DNA of 64,000 bases from Phycisphaerae bacterium. Lineage in GTDB: Bacteria; Planctomycetota; Phycisphaerae; UBA1845; Fen-1342. Below, piece by piece: positions 5,190-44,975 of the stretch. A program made the position numbers and the translations under genes. The notes beneath the pieces are model-generated. The model worked only from the letters and a program-made list of their open reading frames with translations, was not told the DNA's origin and did not search any database. Within the stretch, counting starts at the first letter, position 1. Each line of letters opens with the position of its first letter. The stretch lies in contig JASFQK010000013.1 in assembly GCA_050115495.1 (NCBI GenBank), forward strand, positions 32,001-96,000, written 5' to 3'.

Positions 5190-5218
5190 AGCATAGCAGC
5201 GGGCGCATTACTTGTCAA
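5190..5218 (-). promoter_or_regulatory. sigma70 promoter TTGACA-N17-TATGCT of PEP-CTERM copy 1
   Basis: Near-consensus hexamers; conserved in copy 2. Confidence 0.75.
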
Positions 5219-5278
5219 TATAATTCTCATTGAGCGTTGAAAGAGCATTTGCTTCTGCCTTGTTGAGAGTCTCGCAGG

Positions 5279-5632: not shown

Positions 5633-6400
5633 CTACCGACGGCGAATCAGCAGACCCGCCATGCCGAGCAGCAGGAGGCTGCCCGGCTCGGGCGTCACGC
5701 CGATGGCAAACCCGAGCATGTTGTACGTTGCCGTCGAGAACGAGTACCAGCCCGGGCCGTCCGGGAACACGGTGGAGTCCGTGCCACTCCAGTACCACTC
5801 GTCCCGGTCGCTGGAGCCGATGTTCGGGGGATAGAAGGTCAGCGCGGCGACTCCGGCCGGATTATTCCCCTCGTAGGACGTGATCTGCCAAGTCACGAAG
5901 AGGTGATCGTGGGACGTGAGGTCGACCGTGAAGGTCTGGTCGATGTCGCTGATCGTGGCGCGACCGGCTTGGCCGCCCAAAATCGCCCACCCGGTCTCCT
6001 GGCTGAAGCCGCCAATGTAGTCACGGCTGTCGTAATCGTAGAAGTTAATTTCGAAGGTCGGGTTGGCGATGACTTGGTTGAGTTGGGGGGAGGGGTTGCC
6101 GATGTGGAAGCTGAACGAGCGCAGCACACCCGTCCCTTCGGTCCACACTTCGTCGCCCCAAAGGGACTTCACGTCGTACGACGCAATCGTACCCATCCAC
6201 GAGCCGCTGCTGCCGCAGGAATTGTTGTTGTCGTAGATCCACGCGGGCTCGGCGCGCGTCCCGCCGCCGGAAGCGGCCGACACATTCCACTCTTCGAACG
6301 TGTCGAGGTCGTACGACAGCGTCGCGACGTCGCCGAACGCGAGCGCCGGCAGCATCAGTGCGGCGACTGCCAGAATCCCAGTGATCCTTCTCATCTTCAT
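5633..6400 (-). CDS. PEP-CTERM sorting domain protein (copy 2)
   Basis: Paralogue of 4296-5048 with the same C-terminal PEP tail. Confidence 0.9.
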   Translation of the reverse strand: MKMRRITGILAVAALMLPALAFGDVATLSYDLDTFEEWNVSAASGGGTRAEPAWIYDNNNSCGSSGSWMGTIASYDVKSLWGDEVWTEGTGVLRSFSFHIGNPSPQLNQVIANPTFEINFYDYDSRDYIGGFSQETGWAILGGQAGRATISDIDQTFTVDLTSHDHLFVTWQITSYEGNNPAGVAALTFYPPNIGSSDRDEWYWSGTDSTVFPDGPGWYSFSTATYNMLGFAIGVTPEPGSLLLLGMAGLLIRRR

Positions 6401-6564: not shown

Positions 6565-6635
6565 GATAATTCTCATTGAGCTTTGAAAGATCATTTACTC
6601 TTGCTTTGTTGAGCGCCCCGGTTATATTGGAATGG

Positions 6636-7877
6636 ATGCGTCGATTTGTAGACAGGCCGAGTTTGGCGGTTGGTGCGTCGCCAAGCATCGAAAAAACGAT
6701 TAGTCTCGTCGGCAAGAGGCTCACGGGGGCTATTCGCGCGGTGCTTGACGCCATCCCCGGCTACCCGTGCGGTCCACAGGAGTTGGCACGCACCCTCGGC
6801 ATCAACAAAGACCTATCCGGGCGTGCGCTGAATGCGTCTGATAAAAAAGACCCTCTTGCCGCCTTGCATCAGATGCCCGGACCAGCACCGCTTCGACAGC
6901 TCCTGAACGCCGCTCTGCGGAAAGGGGTCGCCAAGAGACTGATCGATGAGGCGGCGGAGGCGGTGCGACAATTCGATCTGCTGATTCGGCAACAGGCTGG
7001 CGACCGCGTGTCGCTCGATGGCATTATCAGCACATGGCTACCCGGCGCCCGCGAAAGATTCGAGATGTTCAACAAACAAGCCGTCCACCGCGGGATGGGG
7101 CAACTCAAGGGGGTGATGGCCGACGTGACGATCCAGACCGCGCTGCTGTACCCAGCGGCCGATGGCGAGCGTGTGGACGGCGTCTGGATTGCCGGCTCTG
7201 TGGGATTGCGGCGGATTCGCCCGACGGTGGTCGTGCATTACTGCTCGCATCGCCTGGCGCCGGACGCCCCTCGGGATTGCCCGCTCACCCTTGACGGCGA
7301 GCCGGTGGTTGGGCTTCGCGGACTGCTGCTTGAAGAATTCTGCTCATCCCCTCTTCCGGTCTTCGACGCGCGTCACCAAGGCACTGCTGTGCATTACACC
7401 TTGGCTGGCGACGCGGTGGGACCGGCTTCCGCGGTCGACCTGCTCTTTGCCGAATTGACGCTTGGCTGCATGCCGCGTTATCGGGATGCTGGCCAACTGA
7501 AGAAACACGGAGCATCGGCCGAAATCACGACCCCCACCAAGACGCTCATCTTTGACGCGTTCCTACACGAGCAGGTATATCCGGGATTGCAGCCCGAACT
7601 CGTGCTCTACGACACGGCGGTCAACGGCCTCGCCGACTTGAATGACCCGACCAGAGATATCGACCGCCTCGATGTGAACGAGACCGTCGAATCGCTGGGC
7701 TGGGGCGCGGCGATGTTTCGCGTCCCGGAGGTTGGCGACTACGTCGAAATCCTCCGTCACATTTTCGGCAGGATCGGCCGGGACGATCGTGAGTTCCGCG
7801 GCTACCGTTGTAAGGTGCAGTACCCTATCTATGGTTCGCAGCTCTGCATGGCTTTCACACCACCAGAAAAACCCTGA
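6636..7877 (+). CDS. Uncharacterised ~415-aa protein with N-terminal HTH-like segment (putative regulator, paralogue A); start uncertain
   Basis: PQELARTLGINKDLSGRAL...DPLAALHQMPGPAPLR; similar to 20535, 36405 and 42144. Confidence 0.8.
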   Translation: MRRFVDRPSLAVGASPSIEKTISLVGKRLTGAIRAVLDAIPGYPCGPQELARTLGINKDLSGRALNASDKKDPLAALHQMPGPAPLRQLLNAALRKGVAKRLIDEAAEAVRQFDLLIRQQAGDRVSLDGIISTWLPGARERFEMFNKQAVHRGMGQLKGVMADVTIQTALLYPAADGERVDGVWIAGSVGLRRIRPTVVVHYCSHRLAPDAPRDCPLTLDGEPVVGLRGLLLEEFCSSPLPVFDARHQGTAVHYTLAGDAVGPASAVDLLFAELTLGCMPRYRDAGQLKKHGASAEITTPTKTLIFDAFLHEQVYPGLQPELVLYDTAVNGLADLNDPTRDIDRLDVNETVESLGWGAAMFRVPEVGDYVEILRHIFGRIGRDDREFRGYRCKVQYPIYGSQLCMAFTPPEKP

Positions 7878-20534: not shown

Positions 20535-21797
20535 TCACTCGCTGGGTTGATCGTCGCCGGGCAGACGTCCATCTGCATCTGTTGGGGCCGGTCGCAGGCG
20601 ATTGCTCATGCGCACTTCGCTCTGGATGATCGGGTATTCCATGCGGAAGCGGTAGACGTCGAAGCGTTGCGGCTCCCAGCCCAGACGCTCGAACACATAG
20701 GACACCATGTCCGCGTAGCGCGGCACCTCGGGCGTGTGCAGCGCATCAGTCGCCTTGCCCATGTACTGCACGGTGTCCGTAAGCGGCAGGCGAATGGAGG
20801 AGTTGTACGGTCCGGAGGCGAAGTTGCTGTAGATGACGAGCTCCGGCTCCAGACGCCCATACAGTTCTTCGTGGACGAACTGGTCGAAGATGAGCAGCTC
20901 AGACGCGGTACCCACCTGGGCCACGTAGCTCGCGCTGCTGTCTGTCTCACAGCAGTAATAGGAACCGCCGCGCCGAACGATCTCGCCCGTGATGCACGTG
21001 ACGGCTCCGGTCTTGCCGGCGCGACCCGGCGACAGCGTCCACTGCAATGACTCTGCCACGTGGCTGTATTCGAGCTTCGGACGCGGTTGACTCATGAAGA
21101 GCTTCGCCGCCACATCGTCCGGGTTTTCCACGTCGTACAGCGGCTCGAACGGGGCATCGGACGGCACAACCCCCGAGTCGGTGCGGCAGCGGGCCAGACC
21201 GAGCGGCCAACGCACGTCGGGCCGGAGACGTTGCACGCCGACGAGTCCCCGCATTGCGGCGTGATCCACCCGCCCGGGGGTCTTCGAGAAGTTGACGAAC
21301 GAGGCTCGCAACTGCGCCTCGGCCGACACGCCCCAGATGTAGCTGTTCGCCTCGTACGCGAGCCGGCGGTGGGCCAGGTCCATCTCCGCGCGACCCTCGT
21401 CTGAGTGGGCGGCCAGCATCCGGTCGAGCCGTCTGCGACTGCCGGCGTGGATGCGGACCAGGTTGTCATAGTCGGCGAGGGCGGCGGCCGCCGTCTCGGT
21501 AAGGGCCACGGGAACGCCTTGCTTCTTCGCGGCCCGCAGGAAGATCCGCACGCCGCCGGTACCGGGGATGTAGCGGGCGGCGTCGAACGGGTTGGGGTAG
21601 CGGATGACGTTGAAGATTCGCCAACTGAGCCCCTTATCGATCTTAAGCGTGTGCTGGAGCTCGGACGCCCGCGTAATGGACTGGGGCAGGGCCGCGATAA
21701 TCTCGGTGAATGTCCGCCGAATGCGTCCGACGGCGTCGACCGTGTGCTCATCGAACGGCGGGGGTGAGTCCTTCTTCTCGGGGGTCTCCGTCTTCAT
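20535..21797 (-). CDS. Uncharacterised HTH-like putative regulator, paralogue B (most divergent)
   Basis: ASELQHTLKIDKGLSWRIF...IPG; C-terminal FDVYRFRMEYPI matches the other paralogues. Confidence 0.8.
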   Translation of the reverse strand: MKTETPEKKDSPPPFDEHTVDAVGRIRRTFTEIIAALPQSITRASELQHTLKIDKGLSWRIFNVIRYPNPFDAARYIPGTGGVRIFLRAAKKQGVPVALTETAAAALADYDNLVRIHAGSRRRLDRMLAAHSDEGRAEMDLAHRRLAYEANSYIWGVSAEAQLRASFVNFSKTPGRVDHAAMRGLVGVQRLRPDVRWPLGLARCRTDSGVVPSDAPFEPLYDVENPDDVAAKLFMSQPRPKLEYSHVAESLQWTLSPGRAGKTGAVTCITGEIVRRGGSYYCCETDSSASYVAQVGTASELLIFDQFVHEELYGRLEPELVIYSNFASGPYNSSIRLPLTDTVQYMGKATDALHTPEVPRYADMVSYVFERLGWEPQRFDVYRFRMEYPIIQSEVRMSNRLRPAPTDADGRLPGDDQPSE

Positions 21798-21852
21798 GGT
21801 TGCGACTCTAATCGGTTCTGAGGGAAATATCAAGTGAAGTTTTTAAAAACTA

Positions 21853-22286: not shown

Positions 22287-23414
22287 ATGACTTCGAACCT
22301 TCAGAGAATCAGTTGCGTGTTGACGACCGTCGCGGTGCTGACGTTCACCGGTGCGGCATTCGGCGGTTGGACGTTCATCGACCTTGGTAGCCTCGACGGA
22401 CGGGGGTGCCTCGGTGTCGACGTGAACAACGCCGGCCAGGTGACCGGCTACTCCACGTACGAAGGGGGAGGGGACTTCGACTATCACCCGTTCATCTGGG
22501 AGAACGGCAGCATGATCGATCTCGGCACGATCGGTGATGCGTACCTGGCGCAGCCCACGGCCATCAGTGAGGCCGGGCAGGTAGCGGGTTGGTCCAAGAT
22601 CCAGCCTTACCCGGATAACCACGCGTTTTTCTGGGAAAACGGAACCATGACCGATCTGGGAACGTTGGGCGGCAGCCAGACCTGGGGCGAGGGCGTCAAC
22701 AGCGCCGGCCATGTGGTCGGGTACCAGAGCACGCCGGGTTGTGCCTTCCTGTGGGATGGGACGACGATGCAGGACCTGAACAGCTCGTCCAACCCCGACT
22801 GGCAGCTCACGGGCGCCCTCGACATCAATGATTCGGAGCAAATCGTAGGCCAGGGCAACATCGATGGTTCCACCAGGGCCTTTCTGTACGACGCCGGCGT
22901 GATCACCAATCTGGGCGTCCTGGGCACTGGGGATAACAGCTCGGCGAACGCCATTTCCGAGTCCGGAATCATCGTGGGCCGCTCGACGAACGGGGAGACG
23001 TACCGGCCGGGGCCGGGGCCCATGACGCGTCCGGTCAACCATGGTTTCCTGTGGCAGGACGGCGTCATGACCGACCTGGGTACGCTCGGCGGGATTCTGA
23101 GCGAGGCGTTCGACGTGAACGCATCCGGCCAGGTGGTCGGCAAGGCGAACTACACTGAGGGAGACTTCCACCACCACCACGCCTTTCTGTGGGACGACGG
23201 CGTCATGATCGACCTCAATGACCTGCTCCCGGCCGGCAGCGAATGGGAACTGAGGGAGGCCACGGGCATCAACGATCTCGGGTACATCGTTGGGTGGGGG
23301 ATGGTGAACGGGGTGGAGCGTGGGTTCATCCTCGTTCCCGAGCCCAGCACGCTGACCTGTCTGCTCGGCCTGGGCGCACTCCTGTTCGCTCGCGGACGGC
23401 GGAACGCGTCCTAG
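22287..23414 (+). CDS. HAF-repeat PEP-CTERM extracellular protein
   Basis: Repeated HAF(F/L)W..G.MTDLGTLGG..A..IN..GQVVG; VPEPSTL tail. Confidence 0.92.
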   Translation: MTSNLQRISCVLTTVAVLTFTGAAFGGWTFIDLGSLDGRGCLGVDVNNAGQVTGYSTYEGGGDFDYHPFIWENGSMIDLGTIGDAYLAQPTAISEAGQVAGWSKIQPYPDNHAFFWENGTMTDLGTLGGSQTWGEGVNSAGHVVGYQSTPGCAFLWDGTTMQDLNSSSNPDWQLTGALDINDSEQIVGQGNIDGSTRAFLYDAGVITNLGVLGTGDNSSANAISESGIIVGRSTNGETYRPGPGPMTRPVNHGFLWQDGVMTDLGTLGGILSEAFDVNASGQVVGKANYTEGDFHHHHAFLWDDGVMIDLNDLLPAGSEWELREATGINDLGYIVGWGMVNGVERGFILVPEPSTLTCLLGLGALLFARGRRNAS

Positions 23415-23479: not shown

Positions 23480-24544
23480 ATGGAGAAAACGATGCGATCT
23501 CTGAGTCTTCTGGCAGCGATCATGATGGCGCTGAGCGCGCCGGCGCTCGCTTCGGTGTCCTATACCATCACCGACCTGGGTACGCTGACGTCGGTCCCGT
23601 ACAGCAATGCACGCACCTTGAACGAGAACGGGCAAGTCGGTGGCTACTCGGCGGGGGCCGACCACTACTCGCGGGCCTTTTTCTGGGAAGACGGCGTGAT
23701 GACCGATCTGGGACTCTTCTCGGCCCAGGCTTCGTTCGCCTGGGACATGAACAGCTCCGGTCAGATGGCTATCAGGACAGTCGGCCCGGACTCCGCCTGG
23801 GTGTGGGACAACGGTAGCGTCACTTACATCTCGCCGCTGCCGGGCGGATCGTCCAATGAAGCGTACGGTATCAACGATGCCGGCCAGGTCGCGGGTCGAT
23901 CGGCGACGAGCGTTGGCCAGCGGGCGTTCCTGTGGGACGACGGCTCCTTGTGGAGCCTCGGTACCCTCGGCGGGAACTACAGTTCCGCCCATGACATCAA
24001 TAACGCCGGCCAGGTGGCTGGTACGTCTGCCAACGCGAGCGGAGTATGGCATGCCTTCCTTTGGGACGACGGCGTGATGACCGACCTGGGTACGCTCGGC
24101 GGCCCAAGTAGCGCCGGGATCGCCATGAACGACGCCGGCCACGTCGTGGGCCGGTCGTGGCTGCCCGAAGGTGGACCCTACCGGGCGTTCCTGTACCGGG
24201 ACGGAGCGATGGCCAACCTGGGCTCGCTCGGCGGAGAGTTCGCCGATGCCCTGGGAATCAACAACCTGGATCAGGTCGTCGGCCACTCCTTGTTGGCCGG
24301 TGGCGCCCAACGCGCCTTCATCTGGGATGACGGCGTGATGACCGACCTGAATGACCTGCTCGTGGACGGCGGCGCGTGGGAACTGACGGAGGCCGCCGAC
24401 ATCAACGATGCGGGCCAGATCGTCGGTGTGGGGTACATCAACGGGGACGAACACGCCTTCCTGCTGACCCCTGTTCCCGAACCGGCGACGCTCAGCCTGC
24501 TGAGCCTCGGCGCCCTGGCGCTGCTCCGCCGGCGACGCGCCTGA
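23480..24544 (+). CDS. HAF-repeat PEP-CTERM extracellular protein
   Basis: Same repeats; VPEPATLSLLSLGALALLRRRRA. Confidence 0.92.
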   Translation: MEKTMRSLSLLAAIMMALSAPALASVSYTITDLGTLTSVPYSNARTLNENGQVGGYSAGADHYSRAFFWEDGVMTDLGLFSAQASFAWDMNSSGQMAIRTVGPDSAWVWDNGSVTYISPLPGGSSNEAYGINDAGQVAGRSATSVGQRAFLWDDGSLWSLGTLGGNYSSAHDINNAGQVAGTSANASGVWHAFLWDDGVMTDLGTLGGPSSAGIAMNDAGHVVGRSWLPEGGPYRAFLYRDGAMANLGSLGGEFADALGINNLDQVVGHSLLAGGAQRAFIWDDGVMTDLNDLLVDGGAWELTEAADINDAGQIVGVGYINGDEHAFLLTPVPEPATLSLLSLGALALLRRRRA

Positions 24545-32605: not shown

Positions 32606-32668
32606 GAGGAGGTACACACGATCGCGACCGCACGCGGGCCCCCGCACCCGCGCGGGCCGATTCACGCA

Positions 32669-34270
32669 TTACGGCTCAACGAGCAGGCCAACGAACGGCG
32701 AGATGTCGAAGTTGTTCACCACACTGTCGCCGTTGCAGTCGCCGTTGAGGATATCGCACTCCGGATACGCCGCCGCGTACTCGGTCGGGTTGGTCACCGC
32801 CAGCACGAACGGCGAGATGTCGAAGTTGTTCACCACGCCGTCGCAGTTCATGTCGCCGATGATGTTCGGTTCCAGCCACGTGACCCAGATGCCCTGCGGT
32901 TCATAAGCACCGCTGCGAGCCTCGTACACGAGCATCATGCTGTCTTCATTCGCCTCGATCTCGCTCAACTCGGCCAGCGACTGGTCGGAGACGTCCATCT
33001 GTCCGTCCCACTCGCTGCCGGTGTACCACATGGACGTAGTAGAGGCGCCCGGGCCACTCAGCGCCGCCACGGCGTTCGAGTCATTCAGCATGCTCATCCG
33101 CACCGGACTGAGCGGGTCGAACGCCACATCCGGAAACTCCGCCGGCTGCCAGCCACCAGCGATCTTGTACGTGAGCGAGCAGAGTTTCTGCTCGCCGCCG
33201 ATGTAGACCGGCGTCAGCAGGGTGACGTCGCCCGCCGCGTTCACGACCACATCGCCGAAGTACTCCATGCCCGAGGCGCAGTCGAGCTCCAGCAGGTACT
33301 CCGCCGTTAGCCAGACACCGCTACACGTTCGACTTGCGCACAGCCAGGTCGTACCGCTCTCGACCCTCTCCCAGAACACCGTCGCGTCACCGTTGTCGTC
33401 CACGACGCCGCGCAGATGCCCCGGATTCTCGCCGAACACGACCGTACAATCGACTGCCTGTGGCACCGGCAGGCCCGGCTCCCACGCCAGATTGCTCGAA
33501 TCGAAACGATGCGCGTAGAGCCGAAACGCCCCCAGCATCTCGCGCGCCATGTAGAACAGGTACACCGCCGTGCCGGACTCGTTCTGAATGATAGTCGGCA
33601 ATATGCCGACATGTGTGCCAGTGGGAGCCATCGCCTCCGGCGTGCTCCATGCCGCTCCCTGTCCACTTGCCGGACACGTGCAACTGTGCACCTCCTCCAT
33701 TGCCACGTGCGCCTCGACCAGGTTTCCCGCCGAATCCACTCCGATGTTGAGCGACTGGATGTGAACATACCGCGCAGCATCGAGTGCCTCGTAGCCCACG
33801 GTCCATCCCGAACCGGGCACATAATGTGCCGCATTGACGAGGAAGAAGTCCATCTCGTACGTATCATGGCTCAGAAAGAGAAGCGTGATGTGGCCCTGCG
33901 GGTCAATCACCGCCGTGGACGCCAAGCCGATTGGCGCCACGTAGAACTCCATCCAATCGAACGCCGTCACGAAGTCCGCAGCGATGACTTCGGGGTCCTC
34001 CCACGTTCCCTCGCTCGCATCGAATCTCCGTGCAACCTGCTGGTACGTGCTCCCGCCGGGCTCTCCAGTGAATACCCAGGCGTCACCCTCGCTGCCGAAC
34101 AGCGTTGCCCCCAGGAGACTATAGGGCGCCGTCAGTTGTACGGGCTCCGCCCAGTGATGCGTCTCTGCGCCCCCGTTACCCCACGCCAGGCCGGGACACG
34201 CCAGACCGAGCGCGACTCCACACAGTACTGCCAGTATTACCCTGCGATTATGATCTCGTGATGTTCTCAC
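32669..34270 (-). CDS. Secreted beta-rich (propeller-like) protein with C-terminal dockerin
   Basis: Signal peptide; repeated D..G/W motifs; [18 protein letters not shown] duplicated. Confidence 0.85.
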   Translation of the reverse strand: MRTSRDHNRRVILAVLCGVALGLACPGLAWGNGGAETHHWAEPVQLTAPYSLLGATLFGSEGDAWVFTGEPGGSTYQQVARRFDASEGTWEDPEVIAADFVTAFDWMEFYVAPIGLASTAVIDPQGHITLLFLSHDTYEMDFFLVNAAHYVPGSGWTVGYEALDAARYVHIQSLNIGVDSAGNLVEAHVAMEEVHSCTCPASGQGAAWSTPEAMAPTGTHVGILPTIIQNESGTAVYLFYMAREMLGAFRLYAHRFDSSNLAWEPGLPVPQAVDCTVVFGENPGHLRGVVDDNGDATVFWERVESGTTWLCASRTCSGVWLTAEYLLELDCASGMEYFGDVVVNAAGDVTLLTPVYIGGEQKLCSLTYKIAGGWQPAEFPDVAFDPLSPVRMSMLNDSNAVAALSGPGASTTSMWYTGSEWDGQMDVSDQSLAELSEIEANEDSMMLVYEARSGAYEPQGIWVTWLEPNIIGDMNCDGVVNNFDISPFVLAVTNPTEYAAAYPECDILNGDCNGDSVVNNFDISPFVGLLVEP

Positions 34271-34345
34271 CGAATGCTCCTTTCATTGTGCCAGCCCGCT
34301 ACGCTTCGGCTGGGCTCTGGACCCGCGGCTACTGCGTGCGACTGC

Positions 34346-36034
34346 TCACGGCGTTTCGCGCAGCCATGTCGTACGCACCGGGCTGTAGTCCCAGTCCTCA
34401 TGGTTCTCGTACATCAATACCGCCGTGCCCTGCGCCCCGGCCAGATCCTGGAAGTACACAACGCATTCCTCGGGTAGCGGTAGCAGGTCCGGCGACCAGG
34501 ACGTACCGTCGTATTCCAGAGACACCAGACGCGCGTAGCCGTCTACACTGGTCACTGTCGTTGCCACGGCCTTGTCGCCGTCGTAGAAGCACACGCGGCA
34601 GCGCGTCACGAGGGCCATGCTGTTTCGTACCGGATACTGGGTAGCATCCCAACCGACGCCCGCCCGATAGCGTACGGTGTGCAAGTACTTGTAGTTGTTG
34701 GCGTCGCCCGGAAGTCGATTGTTGACAGTGAACACCGCAATTACGTCGCCCGCGTCGTTGATGTCGATATCTCCCCACACCGTGAGGTCGGGCGAACTTA
34801 TCGTTACTATTCGCGACAACTCTGTGGGGGCTTGCCAGGCTCCGCCTTCCGTACGGCTGCCGCAGACCGTATGACCGTCAGGCAATGCTCGTCGCTTCGC
34901 CCACACGACAGTCGCCTCACCGGCTTCGTCCACAACGGCCAGACACCCTCGCGCGCTGCCGCCGTCGTCCCGAACGCCTATCGATCCCGGCAACATCTGT
35001 GGCGCGGACCACTGTTTCGTGGCGGTGTCATATCGGTTGGCGAACATCGCCCACCACAAATCTGTAGGTTGGCCAAAATACGTCACGAATGAGGCCTCCC
35101 GGCTGACGATCGGCTTGACGTAGAGCAGATAGACCGCGGTGCCGGAACGGTTGCCCACAACATCCACGGCCAACGTCAGCGTGTTTGGGTGCCCACCCAG
35201 TGGTACTGTCGACTCGCTCCACGTACCGGTGCCGGCATCATAGACCGCGCACACCAGGAAAGCATGATCGGGGTCGTTCCAGAGCATGGCGATCACGTTT
35301 CCGTCCTGATCGGCTGCCAGGGATATGCTTTGCCAGAACGCGTCCGTGGAATAGACCAGCACCTCCTCCGACCAGCCTGTTGCCGGTTCGTAGCGCTTGG
35401 CATAGGCGGAGTAGGCGTGTGGATCCTCCTCAATCTTGCGATACATGACCGTTATGTTGTCGTTCCGATCGATCGCAATCCGCCCGATCGGCGCCGCTGA
35501 GGGGTCACCGAACGCGTCGTGCCCTTCAGACTGGCGTGCCCATCCGCCATAGACCGCCCAGGCACGTCGCAAGCCATCGCCGCCGTTGTTGTTCTCGAAG
35601 AAGACACCGTCTCCGTTGAACAGAGTGCTGTCGCCGAAATCCTGATAGTCGTCCCAGTAGACGTCGCCGCGCGTCTTCCGCGTCTCTTTGCTTTCGCCGC
35701 CGGCTCCGTCGCCGAGACCGCCCACCAAGTCTCCCGGGTCGCGGGCCAGCAGTTGGCCCGTTCGGGCGTCAATGAGGTACCCGTTGTCGAGCAGAATCAT
35801 GTGGCCGGCCGTACGCGTGATCGCGGGCGTTTTGTGTTCGGGCGTTCGCAGCTTCCACACGGTGGCCCCGTGCGCGTCCACCGCCGACACCGCGCCCGGC
35901 CCCATCCTGAACGAGAGTCCCGCCACCGCCACATCGCCGGCGTCCCGTGGCGGCTGCTCCGCCGCCGCTCCGGCGACCCAAACGGCCACCGCGAGCAGGG
36001 CGATCACTGCCTGAATAGCGCTTCTACTTCTCAC
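34346..36034 (-). CDS. Secreted beta-rich (propeller-like) protein, no dockerin
   Basis: Signal peptide; shares GTAVYLLY, VVDEAGEATVVW, GDIDINDAGD with its neighbours. Confidence 0.82.
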   Translation of the reverse strand: MRSRSAIQAVIALLAVAVWVAGAAAEQPPRDAGDVAVAGLSFRMGPGAVSAVDAHGATVWKLRTPEHKTPAITRTAGHMILLDNGYLIDARTGQLLARDPGDLVGGLGDGAGGESKETRKTRGDVYWDDYQDFGDSTLFNGDGVFFENNNGGDGLRRAWAVYGGWARQSEGHDAFGDPSAAPIGRIAIDRNDNITVMYRKIEEDPHAYSAYAKRYEPATGWSEEVLVYSTDAFWQSISLAADQDGNVIAMLWNDPDHAFLVCAVYDAGTGTWSESTVPLGGHPNTLTLAVDVVGNRSGTAVYLLYVKPIVSREASFVTYFGQPTDLWWAMFANRYDTATKQWSAPQMLPGSIGVRDDGGSARGCLAVVDEAGEATVVWAKRRALPDGHTVCGSRTEGGAWQAPTELSRIVTISSPDLTVWGDIDINDAGDVIAVFTVNNRLPGDANNYKYLHTVRYRAGVGWDATQYPVRNSMALVTRCRVCFYDGDKAVATTVTSVDGYARLVSLEYDGTSWSPDLLPLPEECVVYFQDLAGAQGTAVLMYENHEDWDYSPVRTTWLRETP

Positions 36035-36303
36035 TGCTTTCCTCCTTAGCGATGGAGAGGCTCAAGAACACCGCTTGCGACTCCGCAGCCGCCGCGGCTT
36101 CCACAGGGGAGGTCCATCCCGCCGCCCAATCGGCGGCAGGTCTCAACTCGGATGGGGGCCGCCGTCTCGCCGCCAATCCCGCGACGAAACCGGTTACGGC
36201 CGGATGACTTGGTGAACGATAGGAGCATTCACTTCGTCCTCAGCTCCCATTCGGCGGCCCAGCTCCACACAGAGCCAGGGTTGCCGCCCCCTCTGATATT
36301 CGT

Positions 36304-36332
36304 ACGATAACGGATTCTCCCTGAGAACTCAA
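36304..36332 (-). promoter_or_regulatory. sigma70-like promoter TTGAGT-N17-TATCGT overlapped by palindrome GATTCTC-cct-GAGAACT
   Basis: Same layout at 41787-41815. Confidence 0.65.
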
Positions 36333-36404
36333 TCCAAAAATCACGAAAGTTCTGGCCTTTTGCCCTTCACCCCCGTATAATCGGCACCGAATACGGTGGA
36401 TACT

Positions 36405-37661
36405 ATGGAAACAAGCACCGATACGAAACTTACCGGACCTACGGAACGGTCTGTTGGCCAGCGCATTTCCGCCGTCGGACGAGAGTTGACCACTGCCTTC
36501 GACGCGTTGGTCGCCGCCCTGCCCGGCCGAACACACAAGCCACAGGAACTCGCGCGGCTTCTCCACCTCGACAAGAACGTCACGCATCGGCTCGTGACGG
36601 CGATTCGCAAAGGTGATCCGCTCGCCACCGTGCATGCGATGCCCGGACCGGAACCTCTGCGACGCGTCGCCGCTGCCGCACGCCGCCATGCGGTGCCGGC
36701 CTCCGTCGCCGAGCGGGCCGAGCAGGCCATCGGGGCGTTCGAGGCGGTCATTAATGAGGGGGGCGATCGCGCCGGACTCGACGCCATCATCAGTGCCTGG
36801 CTACCGGACGCTCGCCGCCGATTCGAACGGCTTGCCAAGCAGTCGCTCTATCGTGGCGCTCGCCAGGTCAAAGGGCTCGCCGCCGACGTCAACTTCACCG
36901 CACACCTGATCCATCCGGCGGCAGACGCCGTGTGGTGTGATGCGGTGGACGTTTTCGGATACCTCGGTTTGCAGCGGATTCGCCCCGAGGCGTCGTTTAG
37001 CCTGGGCGTGCTTTGTGGCTCGTCCAACCCTGCCGCCTTGCCACGCACACTCACCGGCGAGACCGTCGAGGATCCGCATCAAACCCTGTGGCCGGAGTAC
37101 TGCTCACGCCCGGCCGTCGAGTTGACCGTCCATCAGATGCCGGCTGCCGCCGATCGCGTCTACGAGCTCAAGTGGAACGACGCCGTCGGCGTGAGTTCCG
37201 CCCGTGACGTCGTCATGCGGGAGTACATTCCGCAGGCGATGCGGGCGTCCCGCAATCCACAGACCGGACTGCGGAAGGCCGCGATCGAGGATTGTGTTAC
37301 GGTCCCCTCGAAAACCCTGATTCTCGATTTGCTGCTGCACAAGGACGTCTTCCCCGCCTGGCAACCGCAGGTCCGGGTCATGGAAACCGGCGCTCGCGGC
37401 CACGCCGATCCCAACGATCCGACGCGTGATTACGACGTCCTGCCACTGCTCGAACGCATCGAGCCACTCGGCCGCGGCGTCGGCCGCTTCCGGGCGGAGG
37501 AGATCCCGCACTACGTGGAGATGCTGGCCGAAGTGTGCGCCATCCGCGGCTGGAACCCCGACGACTTCCGCGGATTTCGAACCAGAATCGAATTCCCCGT
37601 GTTCAGCTCGCTGGTCCAGTTCGTCGTTACTTTGCCGGACCCACCGCCGTCAGCCGGGTAG
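36405..37661 (+). CDS. Uncharacterised HTH-like putative regulator, paralogue C
   Basis: PQELARLLHLDKNVTHRL...DPLATVHAMPGPEPLRR. Confidence 0.82.
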   Translation: METSTDTKLTGPTERSVGQRISAVGRELTTAFDALVAALPGRTHKPQELARLLHLDKNVTHRLVTAIRKGDPLATVHAMPGPEPLRRVAAAARRHAVPASVAERAEQAIGAFEAVINEGGDRAGLDAIISAWLPDARRRFERLAKQSLYRGARQVKGLAADVNFTAHLIHPAADAVWCDAVDVFGYLGLQRIRPEASFSLGVLCGSSNPAALPRTLTGETVEDPHQTLWPEYCSRPAVELTVHQMPAAADRVYELKWNDAVGVSSARDVVMREYIPQAMRASRNPQTGLRKAAIEDCVTVPSKTLILDLLLHKDVFPAWQPQVRVMETGARGHADPNDPTRDYDVLPLLERIEPLGRGVGRFRAEEIPHYVEMLAEVCAIRGWNPDDFRGFRTRIEFPVFSSLVQFVVTLPDPPPSAG

Positions 37662-37849
37662 TCCCATCGCCGATCCTGGGGACTTCCGCGCCGACGTGCT
37701 CCCCCCGCTAGCGTAAGATGCGTGCGCCACGAGCCCACGCCCGTTTCGATGCCGGTCTGGCGTCCCCGCCCCGGCTCCCTGGGGGCGGGGACACAGCTCC
37801 AGCAACCAGACCATTGATCTCGAACATCCCCCCACGAGTCGTGCACCGT

Positions 37850-37893
37850 GCCCTGGAGACGCGGACCGGCTGGGAAGGCCCGCGCTCCAGGGC
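37850..37893. terminator. Long hairpin (copy 2) between convergent genes
   Basis: Near-identical to 32562-32605. Confidence 0.55.
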
Positions 37894-37955
37894 GAGGAGG
37901 CACAGAGGATAACGGCTTTGCGCAGGCGCCTCGCCCGCGCAGGCCGATTCACGCA

Positions 37956-39563
37956 CTACGGCTCAACGAGCAGGCCAACGAACGGCGAGATGTCGAAGTT
38001 GTTCAACACGCCGTCGCCGTTACAGTCGCCGTTGAGGATGTCGCATTCCGGATAGGCCGTCGCGTACGCCGCCGGATTCGTCAGCGCCAGCACGAACGGC
38101 GAGATGTCGAAGTTGTTCACCACGCCGTCGCAGTTCATATCGCCGGCGAGGCTCGTTTCCAGCCACCTGACCCAGACGCCCTGATCCTCGAATGCATTGT
38201 CGCGCAATTCGTAGACCATCAGCCGCTGAGTCTCATTACCGCCGAAGACCGTGGTCTGGCTGTACCAGTCTGCGGATGCCACGTCCAGCGGACCCTGCCA
38301 CTGGGCACCGTCGTGCCGGATCGTGCCGAAGACCATGTCGTCGCTGTTCAGGGCCGCGCACAGCGTGCCGTCTTCCAGCACACACAGACGCACCGTGCCG
38401 GACGTATCGAAGGGGATGTCGAGGAGTTCAGGAGACTGCCACCCGGCGCCGGCCTTGTACATCACCGAACACAGCCGGTACACGCCGTCGACGAACGCCG
38501 GTGTCAGCAACGTGACATCGCCGGCGGCGTTGACGACCGCGTCGCCGAATAATTCCATACCGGACGGGCAGTCCATCTCCAGCGGGTATTCAGGCGCCTG
38601 CCACACGCCCCCGTCGGTGCGGTTGGCACACAGCCACGTCGATCCGCCGACCGTCCGCTCCCAGAATACGGTCGCCTCGCCGTCGTCATCTACAACGCCC
38701 CGCAGGTAAGCCTGTTCCTCGCCGACCAGGAACGTGCAACCGGTGGCGCCCGGCACTGCCTCGGCCGCAGACCAGGTCAGCGTGTTCCAGTCGAAGCGGT
38801 GCGCGTAGAGCTGGAACGGTTGAAGCTGACTGTTGATGCTGGCCATGTAGATCAGGTACGTCGCCGTGCGTGCCTGGTTCTGGATGATCTTCGGCGACAC
38901 GGCCAATGCATAGGCGGGTGAGACCACCTGCGACGAGCTCCAACTCGTGCCATGGAAGCTCGCCTGACACGAAGAGCTGTAGACCTCTCCCTCGAAAGAG
39001 TGTACCTCGACCAGGTTGCCGAGGGCGTCTGCTTCGACGCTGATCGACTGCATGGGGACGTACCGGCCCATGGCGATCACGTTCACGTCGCTGTCCCATC
39101 CGATGCCAGGTCGGTAGTTCCGGGCCAGCACCTCCACCAGCCACAGGTCATCATCCCACGACGGATATACCAGTGTGATGTTGCCCTGCGGGTCGATGGC
39201 GCTGGCCGCTCCGTACCCTACCGGCATGAAGTCGGCAGGGGGCACGGCGGGGTCTACGTACTCGTCACTGAGAATTTCCGGATCCTGCCACATCCCCGTC
39301 TGAGCGTCGTATCGAATCACGTAGTCACGGTAGTGCTGGGCCGTTATGGCGCAGGTGCCCGTGAATACCCAGACGTTCCCCTGACTATCGACTTCGACGT
39401 CGTTGAGCCAGTAACTGCCTACCTGCGTCGCCTCGCCCCAGCGATAGGGGCCGGCGAACAGCGAGCTTGCGCAGCACAGCGCCAGCCCGATTCCCCATAC
39501 GTGCAGGCGCAATGTCCTGCGAATGTGCTTTTGTGATACACTCACGTGCATTCTCCTTATCAT
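37956..39563 (-). CDS. Secreted beta-rich protein with dockerin; paralogue of 32669-34270
   Basis: Collinear similarity; nearly identical dockerin tail. Confidence 0.85.
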
Positions 39564-39715
39564 CTCTCGCGTTGATTCCGCGCAGTGTTATGATCCATGT
39601 TACGCTGCGTCACCGTACTGGTGATTCGGTGAGCGACCGCCTCGCCCATGCCCAACGCACGCGTCCCACGACTGGTTCACACCGCGCGCGGGTCGCGTGC
39701 CGACAACAGCGGTTC

Positions 39716-41473
39716 CTATGGCGCATCACGCAGCCACGTGCTCCGTCCCTCCCCCGTTAACCCCGGCTCATAGACCAGCACCGCCGTGCCTTGCGCGCCG
39801 CTCAGTGCCTGCATGTATATCTCGTCGACGCTGGGCAGAGCCAGCGGTGCCGCCGCCCAGGACGTTCCGTCGTACAGCAGGGATGTCAATTGCCAGGTGC
39901 CACCAACGTCCGTCATCGTCGTTGCCACTGCCTTGTCCGCGTCATAGAAACACACCCGCGTGCGCGTCCGCGTGAAGAATGGCTCACCCAGGCTGTAAGG
40001 CAGGTGATACTCAACAGGGCCCCAACCGACTCCGGCACGATAACGCACCGTGTGCGTCCAGGCTCCCCAGGGCTGCCCGTCTACCTCGTTGCCGGAGACG
40101 AAGGCTGCAATGATGTCGCCCGCCGCGTTGACGTCGATATCGCCCCATGGTTCCAGCGATTCGCTGTCGCCATCAACTTTGACCAGCTCCTCAGGCGCCT
40201 GCCAGACGCCTTGATCCGTGCGGCTTGCGCACAGTGTGGCGGCTTCCAGGTTGTAGACTCTCCGCTTCATCCAGAGCATGGTCGCCTCGCCAGCGTCGTC
40301 GACGACGACCAGCTTCTGCCCTAGTGCGCCGCTTTGCGCAGTGGCAGGAATCAGTTGCGGTGCGGACCACGTCCTGGTAGCCAGATCGAGCCGATGGGCA
40401 TAGTAGGCTGCCTGAGGATATGTGATTCGGCGATCGGAGAGATACTTCTGGTAGAGCAGGTACACGGCCATGCCCGAGCGATTACCGACCACCTCCGGGT
40501 TCGACATGAGTCCTGAACGCGCCCCGAACGGAATCGGAAGCTCGGTCCAGGTGCCCGCGGCCGCATCGTAATACATCGAAAGGGCGGACGAGCCCTCCGC
40601 GGTGCCGACGAGTTGAAGCACCAGAACCACGTTCCCATCTGCGTCTGCCGCTGCCGAGGCGATGCTATCTGTGTTTCCGGAAATCGCCGCATTCGCGCAC
40701 ACCACGGTCGGTGTCAACCAACCGGTCCCGGGTTCGTACCGGACGGCGTACATCGTCTGGACGTCGTTTGGCCTGCCTGTCGCGAATACGGTCAGGTTAT
40801 CGGAGGGGTCGAGCGCATAGGTGATGTAGGCAACGTCCACATCCTCAACGCTCAGGATGGGTACGGCGTCACCGAAAGTCTCATGACCCTCGGATCGACG
40901 AGCGAGAATGCCGAGGTGGTCGTTCACGTTGGCGCTGTAGAAGAGCCATGCGTGACGCAATCCCTGAACGCTGTTGTTCTCAAAGGCGACGCCGAAGTGG
41001 GATATCGAGCCAAGTGATTGCAGTGCACTCCAGTGGGCAGCACCACGCTGCTCTGTCGCTCCGTGATCGCCGTTCTCGCCGTGATCCGCGCCGGCGTTGC
41101 CGTGCGACCCGGGAGCGTACTGCTTCGCAGCCAGGATACGCCCACCGAGCACGTCGATGATCTGGCCATTATCCAACTCAATCATTCGGTCGCTCAGACG
41201 GCTCCACGACGGTGTTGTCCGCCCGTACGTAGGCATGCGCCAGGCCGTTGTGCCGTCCGGCCGGACCGCCTTCAAGATGCCCGGCTCGGCAACGAGGCTG
41301 ATCCCCTCCGAGAACCCCTGTTTCTGGGTTGCTGCGGGTGCCGGTGCGGCAGCCCCTCCGATCTGACCGCCCGATGCCGGCCCGTCCTTTGGCGGCGCCG
41401 CGAGCGCCGTCGCCAGCGCGGCCGCTGCCGACACTAGCGCGACCACTGCCCAAATACCAGTACTACTTCTCAC
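39716..41473 (-). CDS. Secreted beta-rich protein; paralogue of 34346-36034
   Basis: MRS start, LDNG, ARRSEGHETFGD, RVCFYDADKAVATT, GAQGTAVL, TWLR. Confidence 0.82.
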   Translation of the reverse strand: MRSSTGIWAVVALVSAAAALATALAAPPKDGPASGGQIGGAAAPAPAATQKQGFSEGISLVAEPGILKAVRPDGTTAWRMPTYGRTTPSWSRLSDRMIELDNGQIIDVLGGRILAAKQYAPGSHGNAGADHGENGDHGATEQRGAAHWSALQSLGSISHFGVAFENNSVQGLRHAWLFYSANVNDHLGILARRSEGHETFGDAVPILSVEDVDVAYITYALDPSDNLTVFATGRPNDVQTMYAVRYEPGTGWLTPTVVCANAAISGNTDSIASAAADADGNVVLVLQLVGTAEGSSALSMYYDAAAGTWTELPIPFGARSGLMSNPEVVGNRSGMAVYLLYQKYLSDRRITYPQAAYYAHRLDLATRTWSAPQLIPATAQSGALGQKLVVVDDAGEATMLWMKRRVYNLEAATLCASRTDQGVWQAPEELVKVDGDSESLEPWGDIDVNAAGDIIAAFVSGNEVDGQPWGAWTHTVRYRAGVGWGPVEYHLPYSLGEPFFTRTRTRVCFYDADKAVATTMTDVGGTWQLTSLLYDGTSWAAAPLALPSVDEIYMQALSGAQGTAVLVYEPGLTGEGRSTWLRDAP

Positions 41474-41786
41474 TGCTTTCCTCCTTCATATTGGAGAGGC
41501 TCGAGAGCGCCGCTCGCGGCTCCACAGCCGCCACGGCTTTCAGAGGTGGGATTCGCCCCGCGGCCCGATCGGCACCGGGCCTCAATTTGGCAGGGGCCCG
41601 GCGCTTCATCGCCAAGTCGGCGACGAAACCGCTCACGCCCGGACAGCCTAGTGAATGGCAAGTGCACCTACTTCGTCCTTCGTTCCCGTGTGGCTGCCCG
41701 GCTTCGCCCAGAGGCCGGCCCCTCGGCGCGGGAGGTCCATGAGCTGCATGGAACCTGCTGGCGCCAGTGCCCATCCTGATATTCGC

Positions 41787-41815
41787 ACGTTAGTGAATTC
41801 TCCCTGAGAAAACAA
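41787..41815 (-). promoter_or_regulatory. sigma70-like promoter TTGTTT-N17-TAACGT overlapped by AATTCTC-cct-GAGAAAA
   Basis: Homologous to 36304-36332. Confidence 0.6.
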
Positions 41816-42050
41816 TCCGAAAATCGTAAAAACATGGATTATCGAGACTACGCCTCCAGGCCGTCGGTGTCGAATGAGATTTCTGCCGGGGAAGCAACTC
41901 GGGCACTGGAGTGCCGGGAAACTGCGATCGAGCGTTTAATGGCTTATTTTTCAAGGACGGCGATCCCGGAGAGGCTGTCGCACAAGGATGTCTTCCTCGC
42001 CTAGCAGCCAAGAGGTCGCGTCATGGGGGCAGGTGGGCGTGTCTGTATCA

Positions 42051-42067
42051 GATTCTCACTGAGAATC
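42051..42067. promoter_or_regulatory. Perfect palindrome GATTCTC-act-GAGAATC upstream of paralogue D
   Basis: 7-bp perfect arms; followed by the same ATCnnAAAATC tail as the other two sites. Confidence 0.65.
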
Positions 42068-42143
42068 GCATCTAAAAATCACCATTCTAAATGGACTCTT
42101 CGAAAATCTACTTTACAATGATGCGGAGAGGAGAGCACAAACA

Positions 42144-43400
42144 ATGAGGACGGCAATCAACCTGGAAGTCGGCGGACCGAGCGATCATTCCGTCGGCGAG
42201 CTCATCTGTGACGTCGGGCGCGAACTGAGCAGCGCTTTCGACGAGTTGATTGCAGTGCTTCCGGAATCCGCTCGGAGACCACAACCGTTGGCCCAGTTGC
42301 TCGGCCTCGACAGGAACACCGCCCATCGGTTAATGACGGCGATCCGCAAGGGCGACCCCTTGGCCACCGTTCACGCGATACCCGGCCCGGAGCCGCTGCG
42401 CCGCGTGACGGCGGGCGCGCGACGCCACTTCGTTCCCACCCCGATTGCGGAGCGCGCTGAAAGAGCGATTGGGGCCTTTGAGGCGCTGATCAACAATGAG
42501 GGCGGCGACCGCGCCGGACTCGACGCGATCATCAGCGCCTGGTTACCGGACGCACGCCGCCGCTTCGAGCGGCTGGCCAAGCAGTGGGTCTACCGTGGCG
42601 CCCGGCAGGTCAAGGGGCTGGCCGCGGATGTCAATTTCACCGCACATATGATCCATCCGGCGAGCGCACTGTGGTGCGATGCAGTGGACGTCTTCGGCTA
42701 CCTGGGACTTCAGCGGATTCGGCCTGAGGCTTCGTTGCGATTGGGGGTCTTCAGCGGTTCGACACACCTTGAGGCCGGGCCACGCACGCTCAACGGCGAG
42801 CTCATCCAGGATCCGCATGAAATCCTGTGGCCGGAATACTGCTCACGCCCGCCGGTCGAGTTGACTGTGCACCAGATCCCGGAGGGCAGCAGGCGGGTCT
42901 ATGAGCTGAAGTGGCACAAGGCTGTTGGTGTGAGCTCTGCCCGAGACATCGTCATGCGGGAGTACATGTCGCAGGCAATCCGGCGGTGCCGGAATCCGGA
43001 GACGGGACTGCGGAAGGCTGCGATCGAGGATTGTGTCGCTGTGCCGACGAAGGCAATGATCCTTGACGTGCTGTTGCACAAGGACGTCTTTCCCGCCTGG
43101 CAACCGCAGGTCCGCATCATGGAGACCGGTGCCCGCGGCCACGCCGACCCCAACGATCCGACGCGTGATTTCGACATCCTGCCGCTGCTCGAGCGCATCG
43201 AGCCGCTCGGCCGCGGCGTCGGACGTTTTCGGGCGGAGGAGATCCCGCACTACGTGGAGATGCTGGCGGAAGTGTGCGCCATCCGCGGCTGGAACCCTGA
43301 CGACTTCCGCGGTTACCGAACCAGGATTGAGTTCCCCGTGTTCAGCTCGCTGGTTCAGTTCGTCGTCGACTTGCCGGACCCACCGTCATCCGCTACGTGA
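42144..43400 (+). CDS. Uncharacterised HTH-like putative regulator, paralogue D
   Basis: PQPLAQLLGLDRNTAHRL; C-terminal half nearly identical to paralogue C. Confidence 0.82.
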   Translation: MRTAINLEVGGPSDHSVGELICDVGRELSSAFDELIAVLPESARRPQPLAQLLGLDRNTAHRLMTAIRKGDPLATVHAIPGPEPLRRVTAGARRHFVPTPIAERAERAIGAFEALINNEGGDRAGLDAIISAWLPDARRRFERLAKQWVYRGARQVKGLAADVNFTAHMIHPASALWCDAVDVFGYLGLQRIRPEASLRLGVFSGSTHLEAGPRTLNGELIQDPHEILWPEYCSRPPVELTVHQIPEGSRRVYELKWHKAVGVSSARDIVMREYMSQAIRRCRNPETGLRKAAIEDCVAVPTKAMILDVLLHKDVFPAWQPQVRIMETGARGHADPNDPTRDFDILPLLERIEPLGRGVGRFRAEEIPHYVEMLAEVCAIRGWNPDDFRGYRTRIEFPVFSSLVQFVVDLPDPPSSAT

Positions 43401-43434
43401 GGTCCTGCCGGTGTCTTGCCGGGGGGCTTGCGAT

Positions 43435-43525
43435 CGGAGAGGGGGGGATTCGAACCCCCGGTAGAGCTTTGACGCCCTACGACGGTTTAGCAAACCGTTG
43501 CCTTCAGCCACTCGGCCACCTCTCC
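43435..43525 (-). tRNA. tRNA-Ser (GCT)
   Basis: GGAGAGG acceptor stem, ACGGT-TTGCTAA-ACCGT anticodon arm, long variable arm, GGTTCGAATCC; CCA not encoded. Confidence 0.95.
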
Positions 43526-43768
43526 AGGCGGCGGCGGGCGTGCCCGGCGGGCCGCGTCCGCATGCGCTCGGACCAGCATACCGCCGACCCGGGCCCCGGA
43601 CAAGCCCGCTGGCCGGCCGAGTGCCGGGCCTGCGGTCGCGACTCGGTACCGTGGCGCATAAAATGCCGTTTTTCGGCGACCGATGGGACCCCGGTTCCCG
43701 ATTGCTGCGGCGTCGCCGGCCGGCTCCCGCTTAGATGCGACGACCGACCAGGCACGAGGGACGCAACC

Positions 43769-44785: not shown

Positions 44786-44975
44786 CTGGACCGCCCCTCG
44801 CGGCTATGGGACCGTGCCTTGGGGCCTACGCCTGCCGACGGCTCGCCGTGACTTCGGGTAGTATCCCGGCCACCGTCGCCCTCTGACGCCGCGGCGCGTA
44901 GAATGACGTCTTTCGGCGACCGGCCGGGGTCGGACCCTGGCCCCCCGGCGTCGCCGCCGGCGCGTAACACCTGGC

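Follow-up and report, generated by a model that had tools for sequence, protein, structure and literature searches.

We describe here a family of putative regulators, each member of which probably acts as a dimeric transcription factor for its own surface-protein cassette, as judged from sequence and structure models. Four members, R1 to R4, lie in a 64,000-nucleotide stretch of DNA (the window) from a Phycisphaerae bacterium (GenBank assembly GCA_050115495.1, contig JASFQK010000013.1, positions 32,001 to 96,000), and on our best reading the family is a predicted bank of largely orthogonal local transcription factors. In the proposed mechanism, the N-terminal helix-turn-helix (HTH) of the dimer would bind a palindrome next to the predicted sigma-70 promoter of the neighbouring surface-protein gene, and the bound regulator would switch that single gene or operon. 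Residues 58, 61 and 62 of helix 3 would read the half-site, and a clade-specific dimer interface would set the spacing of the half-sites (1-4 bp) and restrict mixed dimers; because half-sites would be read in a clade-specific manner and mixed dimers restricted, many switches could coexist with limited cross-talk. Such a system would do gene by gene what one PrsK/PrsR/sigma-54 circuit does for proteobacterial PEP-CTERM genes. New in this analysis are the subfamily palindromes that change with the recognition helix, the promoter geometry and the dimer model.

The original prediction, made from the window alone, had described four paralogous proteins of about 420 amino acids, each in a divergon with secreted-protein genes, as one-component regulators reused with different cargo. 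Open reading frames for R1-R4 are present at the coordinates in Table 1, their products are full-length homologues that align end to end (BLASTP, pairwise identity 23-79%, E 1e-27 or better), and they carry the motifs that had been proposed as shared, namely an HTH-like block, DP-x7-PG and a C-terminal F..[YF]R....[YF]P. R4 is 79% identical to R3 with a dN/dS of 0.16, and mis-assembly does not explain this pair, because contigs from sequencing run X1, possibly the source of this DNA, cover most of positions 30000-45000 without differences at an even depth of 19-22; runs X2 and X3 gave short low-depth pieces only. All four genes do stand head-to-head with pairs of secreted-protein genes, but dockerin repeats, predicted for both R3 and R4 pairs, occur only in the second gene of each, and the first gene encodes a protein with a signal peptide and neither a dockerin nor a PEP-CTERM signal. 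The family itself is real but much larger than four divergons: a hidden Markov model (HMM) of the four found 57 full-length copies and one fragment, with a median identity of 26%, in the host genome (5.97 Mb, 92% complete, 0.85% contamination). The upstream gene is divergent in 47 of the 57, whereas 10 have a PEP-CTERM or dockerin gene directly downstream on the same strand, so that not every copy sits in a divergon; one or the other arrangement is found at 51 of the 57 loci once second genes are counted. The proteins had also been said to have no obvious transmembrane helix, and hydrophobicity across the 57 copies is in line with soluble proteins (most hydrophobic 19-residue window, median 1.18, above 1.6 in five copies).

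The association with surface proteins is far from random. With our own gene calls and regular-expression labels for PEP-CTERM and dockerin proteins, a divergent gene of either kind faces 42 of the 57 copies; for the non-cargo genes outside the family the figure is 70 of 3,838 (Fisher p 5e-56, a value that is overstated because the paralogues are related). A quick IQ-TREE phylogeny of the 57 copies separates clade A (20 copies) from clade B (37 copies, helix 3 mostly L-x-W); FastTree was used for the analysis of operator types. Clustering of the 63 adjacent genes gave 43 groups. Regulators from either main clade can be found next to one and the same cargo family; the R3/R4 cargo type, for example, recurs downstream of two clade B regulators.

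Each subfamily appears to have its own palindrome. Alignment of the R3 and R4 intergenic regions gave TTCTC-N3-GAGAA, which is also present at R1 and at one further host copy (C26). A single family-wide operator was rejected, since TTCTCANTGAGAA fits the R1/R3/R4/C26 group only. Using palindromic expectation-maximization (EM), we obtained gAATCTC-N3-GAGATTc for clade A (log-likelihood 63) and aNNTTTC-N2-GAAANNt for clade B (97); other divergent promoters matched for AT content gave 27-42. Of 37 held-out clade B regions, 22 exceeded the 95th percentile of the background, and the strict form TTT[CT]..[AG]AAA occurs in 13 of 37 clade B, 0 of 20 clade A and 1 of 391 background regions. By adding loci from other genomes, eight operator types could be resolved, and these pair with classes of the recognition helix. 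TTCTC-N3-GAGAA goes with helices of the form K-D/T-L-S-S/G-R and with the His-Arg class K-N/S-V-x-H-R, which includes R3 and R4; GTTTCC-N-GGAAAC with K-V-L-x-S-R; TGCTCT-N-AGAGCA with R-T-L-A-S-R; TATCC-N-GGATA with R-N-L-S-S-R; TGTAA-N4-TTACA with R-A/V-V/T-x-S-K; TTCCC-N2-GGGAA with K/R-N-L-x-W; GTTTC-N-GAAAC with H-R-K-L-x-W-Q; and TTTC-N2-GAAA with the other L-x-W helices. A further helix class, M-N-V/L-x-C-K (G000:C10:10079-11338, L084, L089 and L091), showed no clear palindrome, and a short direct-repeat-like element is seen upstream by eye. Outside Planctomycetota, an Armatimonas locus (L044) has three tandem TTTC-N2-GAAA sites and is divergent from a prepilin-type gene.

Among 138 genes with enough upstream DNA, 115 could be classed, and 66 of these 115 have the cognate site, compared with a mean of 18 and a maximum of 29 in 5,000 label shuffles; when only other genomes were counted, the figures were 43 of 69 and a shuffle maximum of 22. 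When the operator type was called solely from the DNA, which labelled 66 of 122 non-redundant genes, columns 58 and 61 in helix 3 carried the highest and the third-highest mutual information with it among 391 columns. Of the 25 top-ranking columns, 13 belong to the predicted interface, compared with 67 of 391 overall (p 4e-5). That helix 3 reads the half-site directly we infer from general knowledge of HTH proteins.

The sites are also placed in a consistent manner relative to promoters. For 82 genes with a site, a TTGnnn-16/18-TAnnnT promoter lying 7-14 nt from the site centre was found in the cargo direction in 32 of 67 cases and towards the regulator in 7 of 67; the operon class, in which cargo lies downstream of the regulator, showed the reverse (cargo direction 0 of 8, regulator direction 5 of 8). 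The usual centre is 8.5-13.5 bp upstream of the -35 box, which places it at about -43 to -48. Sites of the His-Arg class fall within the 17-bp spacer in 4 of 7 cases by scan, as does the cargo-side site of R4, and spacer sites with weaker -10 boxes were seen by eye at two further loci (L047 and L048). Genome-wide, 860 promoter-like sites were found, 31 of them with a palindrome in operator geometry; a family gene is found no more than 700 bp away from 27 of these 31 units, and one more is the duplicated cargo promoter of R1, compared with one unit for reversed control patterns. The other eight exact TTCTC-N3-GAGAA sites in the genome are all inside called genes. Control thus appears local and cargo-directed, because of the cargo-side spacing, the duplicate operator at R1 and the 27 units beside family genes. 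A trans regulon was considered and rejected, as the motifs are not enriched before other PEP-CTERM or dockerin genes (16 of 239 vs 143 of 1,809).

The geometry bears on the sign of control. In Escherichia coli, activator sites peak near -45 and -70 and repressor sites overlap the polymerase site (PMC4280137). Because the usual centre at about -43 to -48 matches the first of these peaks, it is rather likely that most members activate, and that the H-R-K-L-x-W-Q operons are positively autoregulated, since there the site keeps the activator distance from the promoter shared by regulator and cargo. To a similar degree, the His-Arg subgroup, including R3 and R4, would be expected to repress, because its site sits in a normal 17-bp spacer. 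The R2 site, which lies close to two -35 boxes (Table 1), could drive both promoters.

The predicted structure is that of a three-part protein. The AlphaFold2 model (86 sequences) has a predicted local distance difference test score (pLDDT) of 93 and a predicted template modelling score of 0.88, and in R3 it consists of a helical domain at residues 12-130 that bears the HTH (46-68), a long linker/dimer helix (134-156) and a strand-rich beta-sandwich (158-409). The N-domain helices lie at 12-37, 46-53, 57-68, 72-78 and 82-93, and PQELARLLHLDKNVTHRL shows HTH spacing. Among the 86 members, HTH_IclR matches 8, with a best E of 0.001, and further HTH families match 1-5, all under curated cut-offs; R4 has such a weak HTH_IclR match over residues 46-65 (14.4 bits vs a cut-off of 22). 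The top structural neighbour of the N-domain is the ChiS DNA-binding domain (7kpo; Z 7.2-7.3, root-mean-square deviation (rmsd) 3.3, 98 residues aligned), and XRE-family structures reach Z 4.9-6.0 (2o38: Z 6.0, rmsd 3.3, 73 aligned). The N-terminus is HTH-like in the model, though the structural match is weak because these scores tie with those of unrelated bundles. The homodimer was predicted with a score of 0.69 compared with 0.00 for the best control, agreement of at least 89% of contacts between runs and pLDDT of at least 84; of 30 solved homodimers, 20 attained the mark used, as did one of 23 single chains. Its interface would consist of the antiparallel linker helix (140-157) and beta-sandwich loops, and conserved residues G120, G157, R193, G262 and L346 (142-sequence conservation) fall within it. 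Part of the C-terminal domain (C-domain) would help to build the interface, and the domain may mainly serve dimer specificity. By analogy with its structural neighbours, this sandwich might also serve as the input domain and sense a ligand in the cytoplasm; a peptide or a partner protein would be the most plausible candidate, although we suggest this only tentatively. Taken with the clade-specific palindromes at cargo promoters and the cargo common to both clades, the HTH-like N-terminus and predicted homodimer support the idea of a one-component regulator reused with different surface cargo, and none of the outcomes named in advance as contradicting it, namely no HTH fold predicted at the N-terminus, a match to a characterised family or random neighbourhoods, was observed.

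The C-domain, originally taken for an undescribed ligand-binding domain, does not have a new fold. Residues 152-411 match the beta-sandwich of PDB 3kd4 (BDI_1141; Z 10.3, rmsd 3.2, 171 aligned), ribophorin I/Ost1 (Z 10.2), Lpg2210 (Z 8.8) and the N-terminal domains of M1 aminopeptidases (Z about 8), with identities of 5-9%. These proteins share the fold, but their sandwiches are extracytoplasmic or enzyme accessory domains, and none is fused to an HTH among the matches listed. M1 aminopeptidases have an HExxH zinc catalytic domain; here only the N-terminal sandwich aligns, no HExxH is present in the columns conserved across 142 sequences and no zinc-peptidase domain was found.

Compared with known regulators, the family can be set beside Rgg/RRNPP proteins and the MmyB-like structure 3pxp, which it resembles in the N-terminal HTH, the dimer (predicted here), the divergent local target and the site by the -35 box. 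Rgg/RRNPP sensors have a C-terminal all-helical TPR-like domain, and Rgg3 is the repressor of the Rgg2/Rgg3 pair. In contrast, the C-domain of the family is an all-beta sandwich, mostly strand over 158-409, rather than TPR or PAS, the leaders of the R3 and R4 cargo contain no conserved small-peptide open reading frame, and 57 copies occur in one genome. The C (controller) proteins (C.PvuII, C.BclI and C.EcoT38IS) have an XRE-like helical domain, with which the N-domain compares at Z 4.9 (C.EcoT38IS), and use palindromic operators near the -35, as predicted for the family. In restriction-modification systems, such operators have an upstream site for activation and a further site, overlapping the -35, for repression (PMC2175313), and C.PvuII activates and represses from adjacent operators. 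However, C proteins are bare HTH domains of 75-83 residues, whereas the family adds a 260-residue beta-sandwich and has surface-protein targets. For XRE/Cro-C1 proteins in general, HTH_31 matched 1 of 86 members (E 0.0045) and HTH_3 none at E 0.1, no Pfam cut-off was passed, and in a comparison of the lambda-repressor-like fold XRE structures gave Z 5.4-6.0, level with unrelated bundles. A resemblance to actinobacterial XRE proteins that have a beta-rich C-terminus is conceivable. ChiS offers an HTH variant that sequence search misses. Its DNA-binding domain is a helix-sheet-helix that, in the available portion of PMC8092284, is always found at C-termini; the family domain is N-terminal in the 57 host copies and the wider alignment, with a plain turn and no strand in 12-130 of either model. 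IclR proteins differ in that HTH_IclR stays under its cut-off and no IclR C-domain match occurs in the 86 members. In Proteobacteria, PEP-CTERM genes are placed under PrsK/PrsR/sigma-54 through a conserved upstream box, found at 99 of 167 genes in the accessible part of PMC1569441. There, a single two-component enhancer system acts globally through a single box, whereas here each cassette would have its own regulator, palindrome and sigma-70-type promoter, and family members, unlike PrsR, have no receiver or AAA+ match in Pfam or NCBIfam. A scan of the host genome for PrsR (TIGR02915) gave a best score of 393.5 bits compared with the cut-off of 502.6, the genome being 92% complete, and one exosortase gene is present. 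Overall, the family would act like Rgg or C-protein regulators, yet lacks defining features of these as well as of ChiS, IclR and PrsR.

All members might instead be repressors, a bank of the lambda cI/XRE type that occupies the -35 flank or the spacer and so holds strong cargo promoters off until release by a ligand or proteolysis. A TTGACA-like -35 box and a 17-bp spacer are common among cargo promoters, and the His-Arg sites lie in the spacer, as such a bank would have it, but most sites are clear of the core promoter, at the activator distance, and the operon-type loci hold this same distance to the regulator's own -35; we therefore regard this alternative as unlikely, though the strongest of the rivals. 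Precedents cut both ways, since Rgg2 and Rgg3 act oppositely from one shared -35-proximal site at -58 to -33, the repressor using the activator's own site, in the available text of PMC3509411. With C.PvuII, this precedent means that dual action is possible.

It is far less probable that the proteins are mere autoregulators, or the palindromes sites of another global factor, while the surface genes are mere bystanders in islands that they share. A site that lies between two promoters could serve either, R4 carries another site by its own promoter, and distances to the -35 in the regulator direction are weakly periodic at 10-10.5 bp (Rayleigh p 0.03-0.06); however, the site is tied to the cargo-direction -35 and flips when the cargo is downstream, and the R1 operator was copied with a cargo gene alone. 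Against a single global factor, the palindrome varies with the regulator clade, and other PEP-CTERM or dockerin genes show no enrichment of sites. Scarcely credible is the view that the protein mobilizes or inverts the cassettes as a recombinase or mobility factor, with the palindromes as its ends or binding sites. Copy number is high and uneven, cargo is reshuffled between regulator clades and R4 ends 34 bp from the 3' end of a tRNA-Ser gene, but no recombinase or transposase family was matched and no such fold neighbour occurs among the matches listed, the median copy identity is just 26%, there is one site per promoter rather than paired ends, and tRNA genes are not enriched (6 of 57 copies within 6 kb vs 11%). 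The conserved columns form no catalytic-looking cluster, and several are at the predicted dimer interface.

Several observations weigh against the reading of the family as local, largely orthogonal activators and repressors. In other genomes, a divergent PEP-CTERM or dockerin gene was found at no fewer than 26 of 85 loci, i.e. at least that number given fetched flanks of mostly 1.5 kb. The cognate site is missing in 49 of the 115 classed genes, 23 of the 138 genes are unclassed, and both the helix classes and the eight motifs were drawn after data inspection. Nearest neighbours by C-domain predict the operator type no worse than helix 3 does (57 of 66 vs 53 of 66); operator type is therefore a clade trait, and co-inheritance is possible. 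Because eight types serve 57 copies and many copies share one, orthogonality is only partial. A near-consensus -35 box, as many of the cargo promoters have, is unusual in class II activation, and the position of a site does not fix the sign of control, because Rgg2 and Rgg3 share a site with opposite effects. The neighbours of the N-domain are all under Z 8 and tied with unrelated bundles, so that the likeness is possibly just a common helical arrangement, and Foldseek with the N-domain alone found nothing at E 0.001 or better (single-sequence model, pLDDT 75).

The family also occurs in other genomes but has far more copies in this host. Six congeners have 2-5 matches each and the richest relative 12 (fragments included). 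Within the same taxonomic family, at least 56 of 71 genomes carry 1-8 copies (best 25 candidates per genome scored), and in a phylum-wide sample at least 19 of 300 other genomes carry at least 1-5 (best 6 candidates per genome scored). Named relatives belong to Planctomycetota/Phycisphaerae plus one Armatimonas, and a worldwide profile search gave 3,203 clusters at 50% identity, 2,007 of these at E 1e-30. For 35 of the 57 copies the nearest match sits among 85 copies from other genomes, and therefore the host genome has collected or kept old subfamilies rather than undergone one recent duplication burst. No family was matched at cut-off in Pfam (R1-R4 included), NCBIfam or PHROGs, as the original prediction had anticipated; a PDB sequence search gave only weak HTH-region matches (E 0.04 and 0.12), a Foldseek search of viral proteins nothing at E 0.001 or better, and the ESM Atlas unnamed Planctomycetota clusters only for the whole protein and no usable named match for the C-domain. 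Longer fused forms were not found, which is weak evidence, and there is no strong sign of swapping between N- and C-domains (identity correlation 0.77). Among the listed open-access papers, we found no description of the family.

The features of the four loci are collected in Table 1. At R1, duplication of the cargo gene carried operator and promoter along, and the regulator was not copied. The two tandem PEP-CTERM genes have near-identical leaders and tails with clustered multi-base amino-acid changes; their pN of 0.13 and pS of 0.12 (dN/dS about 1.1) suggest relaxed or diversifying selection on the duplicate as a surface protein. The R4 intergenic region (41797-42080) is about 255 bp longer than that of R3, and a 29-nt operator block is repeated in it, so that each promoter keeps a site. 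The cargo leaders of R3 and R4 (41474-41786, minus strand, for R4) are 72.5% identical over 240 nt, compared with 33% at four-fold sites of cargo 1. Their two-sequence consensus fold, fitted to the same two sequences, has 67 pairs, of which 44 are the same, 18 have one-sided and 5 two-sided changes, and none is broken; the leaders are possibly a second, RNA-level control. They have no Rfam match, and a family-wide leader RNA was rejected because leader likeness is confined to close relatives. The first R3 cargo protein has no sequence match in Pfam, PHROG or PDB.

Table 1 Predicted features of the four regulator loci (positions in the window)
Feature	Position	Strand	Remarks
R1 cargo 2	4296..5048	-	recent duplicate PEP-CTERM protein, 250 aa
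Duplicated operator and promoter	5190..5236	-	TTGACA-17-TATGCT; ahead of second PEP-CTERM gene of R1 pair
R1 cargo 1	5633..6400	-	PEP-CTERM protein, 255 aa
R1 cargo promoter	6536-6564	-	predicted sigma-70, TTGACG-17-TATGCT
R1 palindrome	6570..6582	.	TTCTC-N3-GAGAA type, 2 mismatches; centre 12 nt upstream of cargo -35
R1 own promoter	6601-6628	+	predicted
R1	6636..7877	+	family regulator, 413 aa; recognition helix NKDLSGR
R2	20535..21797	-	family regulator, clade B, 420 aa; recognition helix DKGLSWR
R2 own promoter	21805-21833	-	predicted, TTGATA-17-TAGAGT
R2 palindrome	21839..21850	.	TTTY-N2-RAAA type; 8.5 nt to cargo -35, 11.5 nt to own -35
R2 cargo promoter	21853-21881	+	predicted, TTGACA-17-TATCGT
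R2 cargo 1	22287..23414	+	DUF3466/HAF-like repeat PEP-CTERM protein
R2 cargo 2	23480..24544	+	DUF3466/HAF-like repeat PEP-CTERM protein
R3 cargo 2	32669..34270	-	533 aa, distant paralogue of cargo 1, C-terminal dockerin-like repeats
R3 cargo 1	34346..36034	-	secreted beta-rich protein, 562 aa
R3 cargo leader	36035..36303	-	long; likely structured RNA
R3 cargo operon promoter	36304..36332	-	predicted sigma-70, TTGAGT-17-TATCGT
R3 palindrome	36315..36327	.	TTCTC-N3-GAGAA; within 17-bp spacer of cargo promoter
R3	36405..37661	+	family regulator, 418 aa; HTH-bearing helical domain, linker helix and beta-sandwich; recognition helix DKNVTHR
R4 cargo 2	37956..39563	-	535 aa, dockerin-like repeats
R4 cargo 1	39716..41473	-	secreted beta-rich protein, 585 aa
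R4 cargo promoter	41787-41815	-	TTGTTT-17-TAACGT
R4 cargo-side palindrome	41798..41810	.	TTCTC-N3-GAGAA; in spacer of cargo promoter
R4 second palindrome	42053..42065	.	upstream of R4's own promoter
R4 own promoter	42092-42119	+	predicted, TGGACT-16-TACAAT
R4	42144..43400	+	family regulator, 418 aa; recognition helix DRNTAHR

Elsewhere in the window, an ECF sigma factor, a Ser/Thr kinase-TPR protein and an FGE-sulfatase-like PEP-CTERM gene lie in a row at 13023-17847 (minus strand); similar proteins make up the most numerous of the regulators' cargo clusters (6 copies), and the row itself is apparently under another control module. NikR, a dockerin protein and a prepilin-type gene follow one another at 29833-32254 (minus strand), a candidate nickel-controlled surface capture operon. 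Rfam search of the window gave two tRNA-Ser genes (43434-43526 and 58370-58459) and nothing else, and the 15 kb between them encode a kinase-like protein of 1,646 aa and an MqsA-HTH-Panacea/SocA antitoxin-like gene (53934-54953). An RsgA GTPase with a C-terminal RNHCP domain fusion is encoded at 8078-9436 (minus strand).

In conclusion, the family suggests a first candidate mechanism for the control of PEP-CTERM and dockerin genes in planctomycetes without a clear PrsR, namely a dedicated regulator per cassette; planctomycete dockerins are described without such a regulator in the accessible part of PMC6461901. The predicted recognition code, in which eight operator types are paired with helix classes in activator and repressor geometries, would, if confirmed, amount to a naturally occurring collection of factor-operator pairs that are partly orthogonal and work on sigma-70-type promoters; the family would also be an example of a beta-sandwich of extracytoplasmic type that has been put to use within the cell. 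We also propose, as a quite speculative extension that we think improbable, that dozens of self-reinforcing, mutually insulated switches, each having a private operator code and dimer interface, latch single surface proteins on or off without a change in DNA, with the sandwich reading a peptide from cargo export (a signal peptide or an exosortase-released tail). If this were true, the cells of one clone would display their surface proteins as a combinatorial mosaic, and such a latching switch bank would be a new way for a cell surface to vary.

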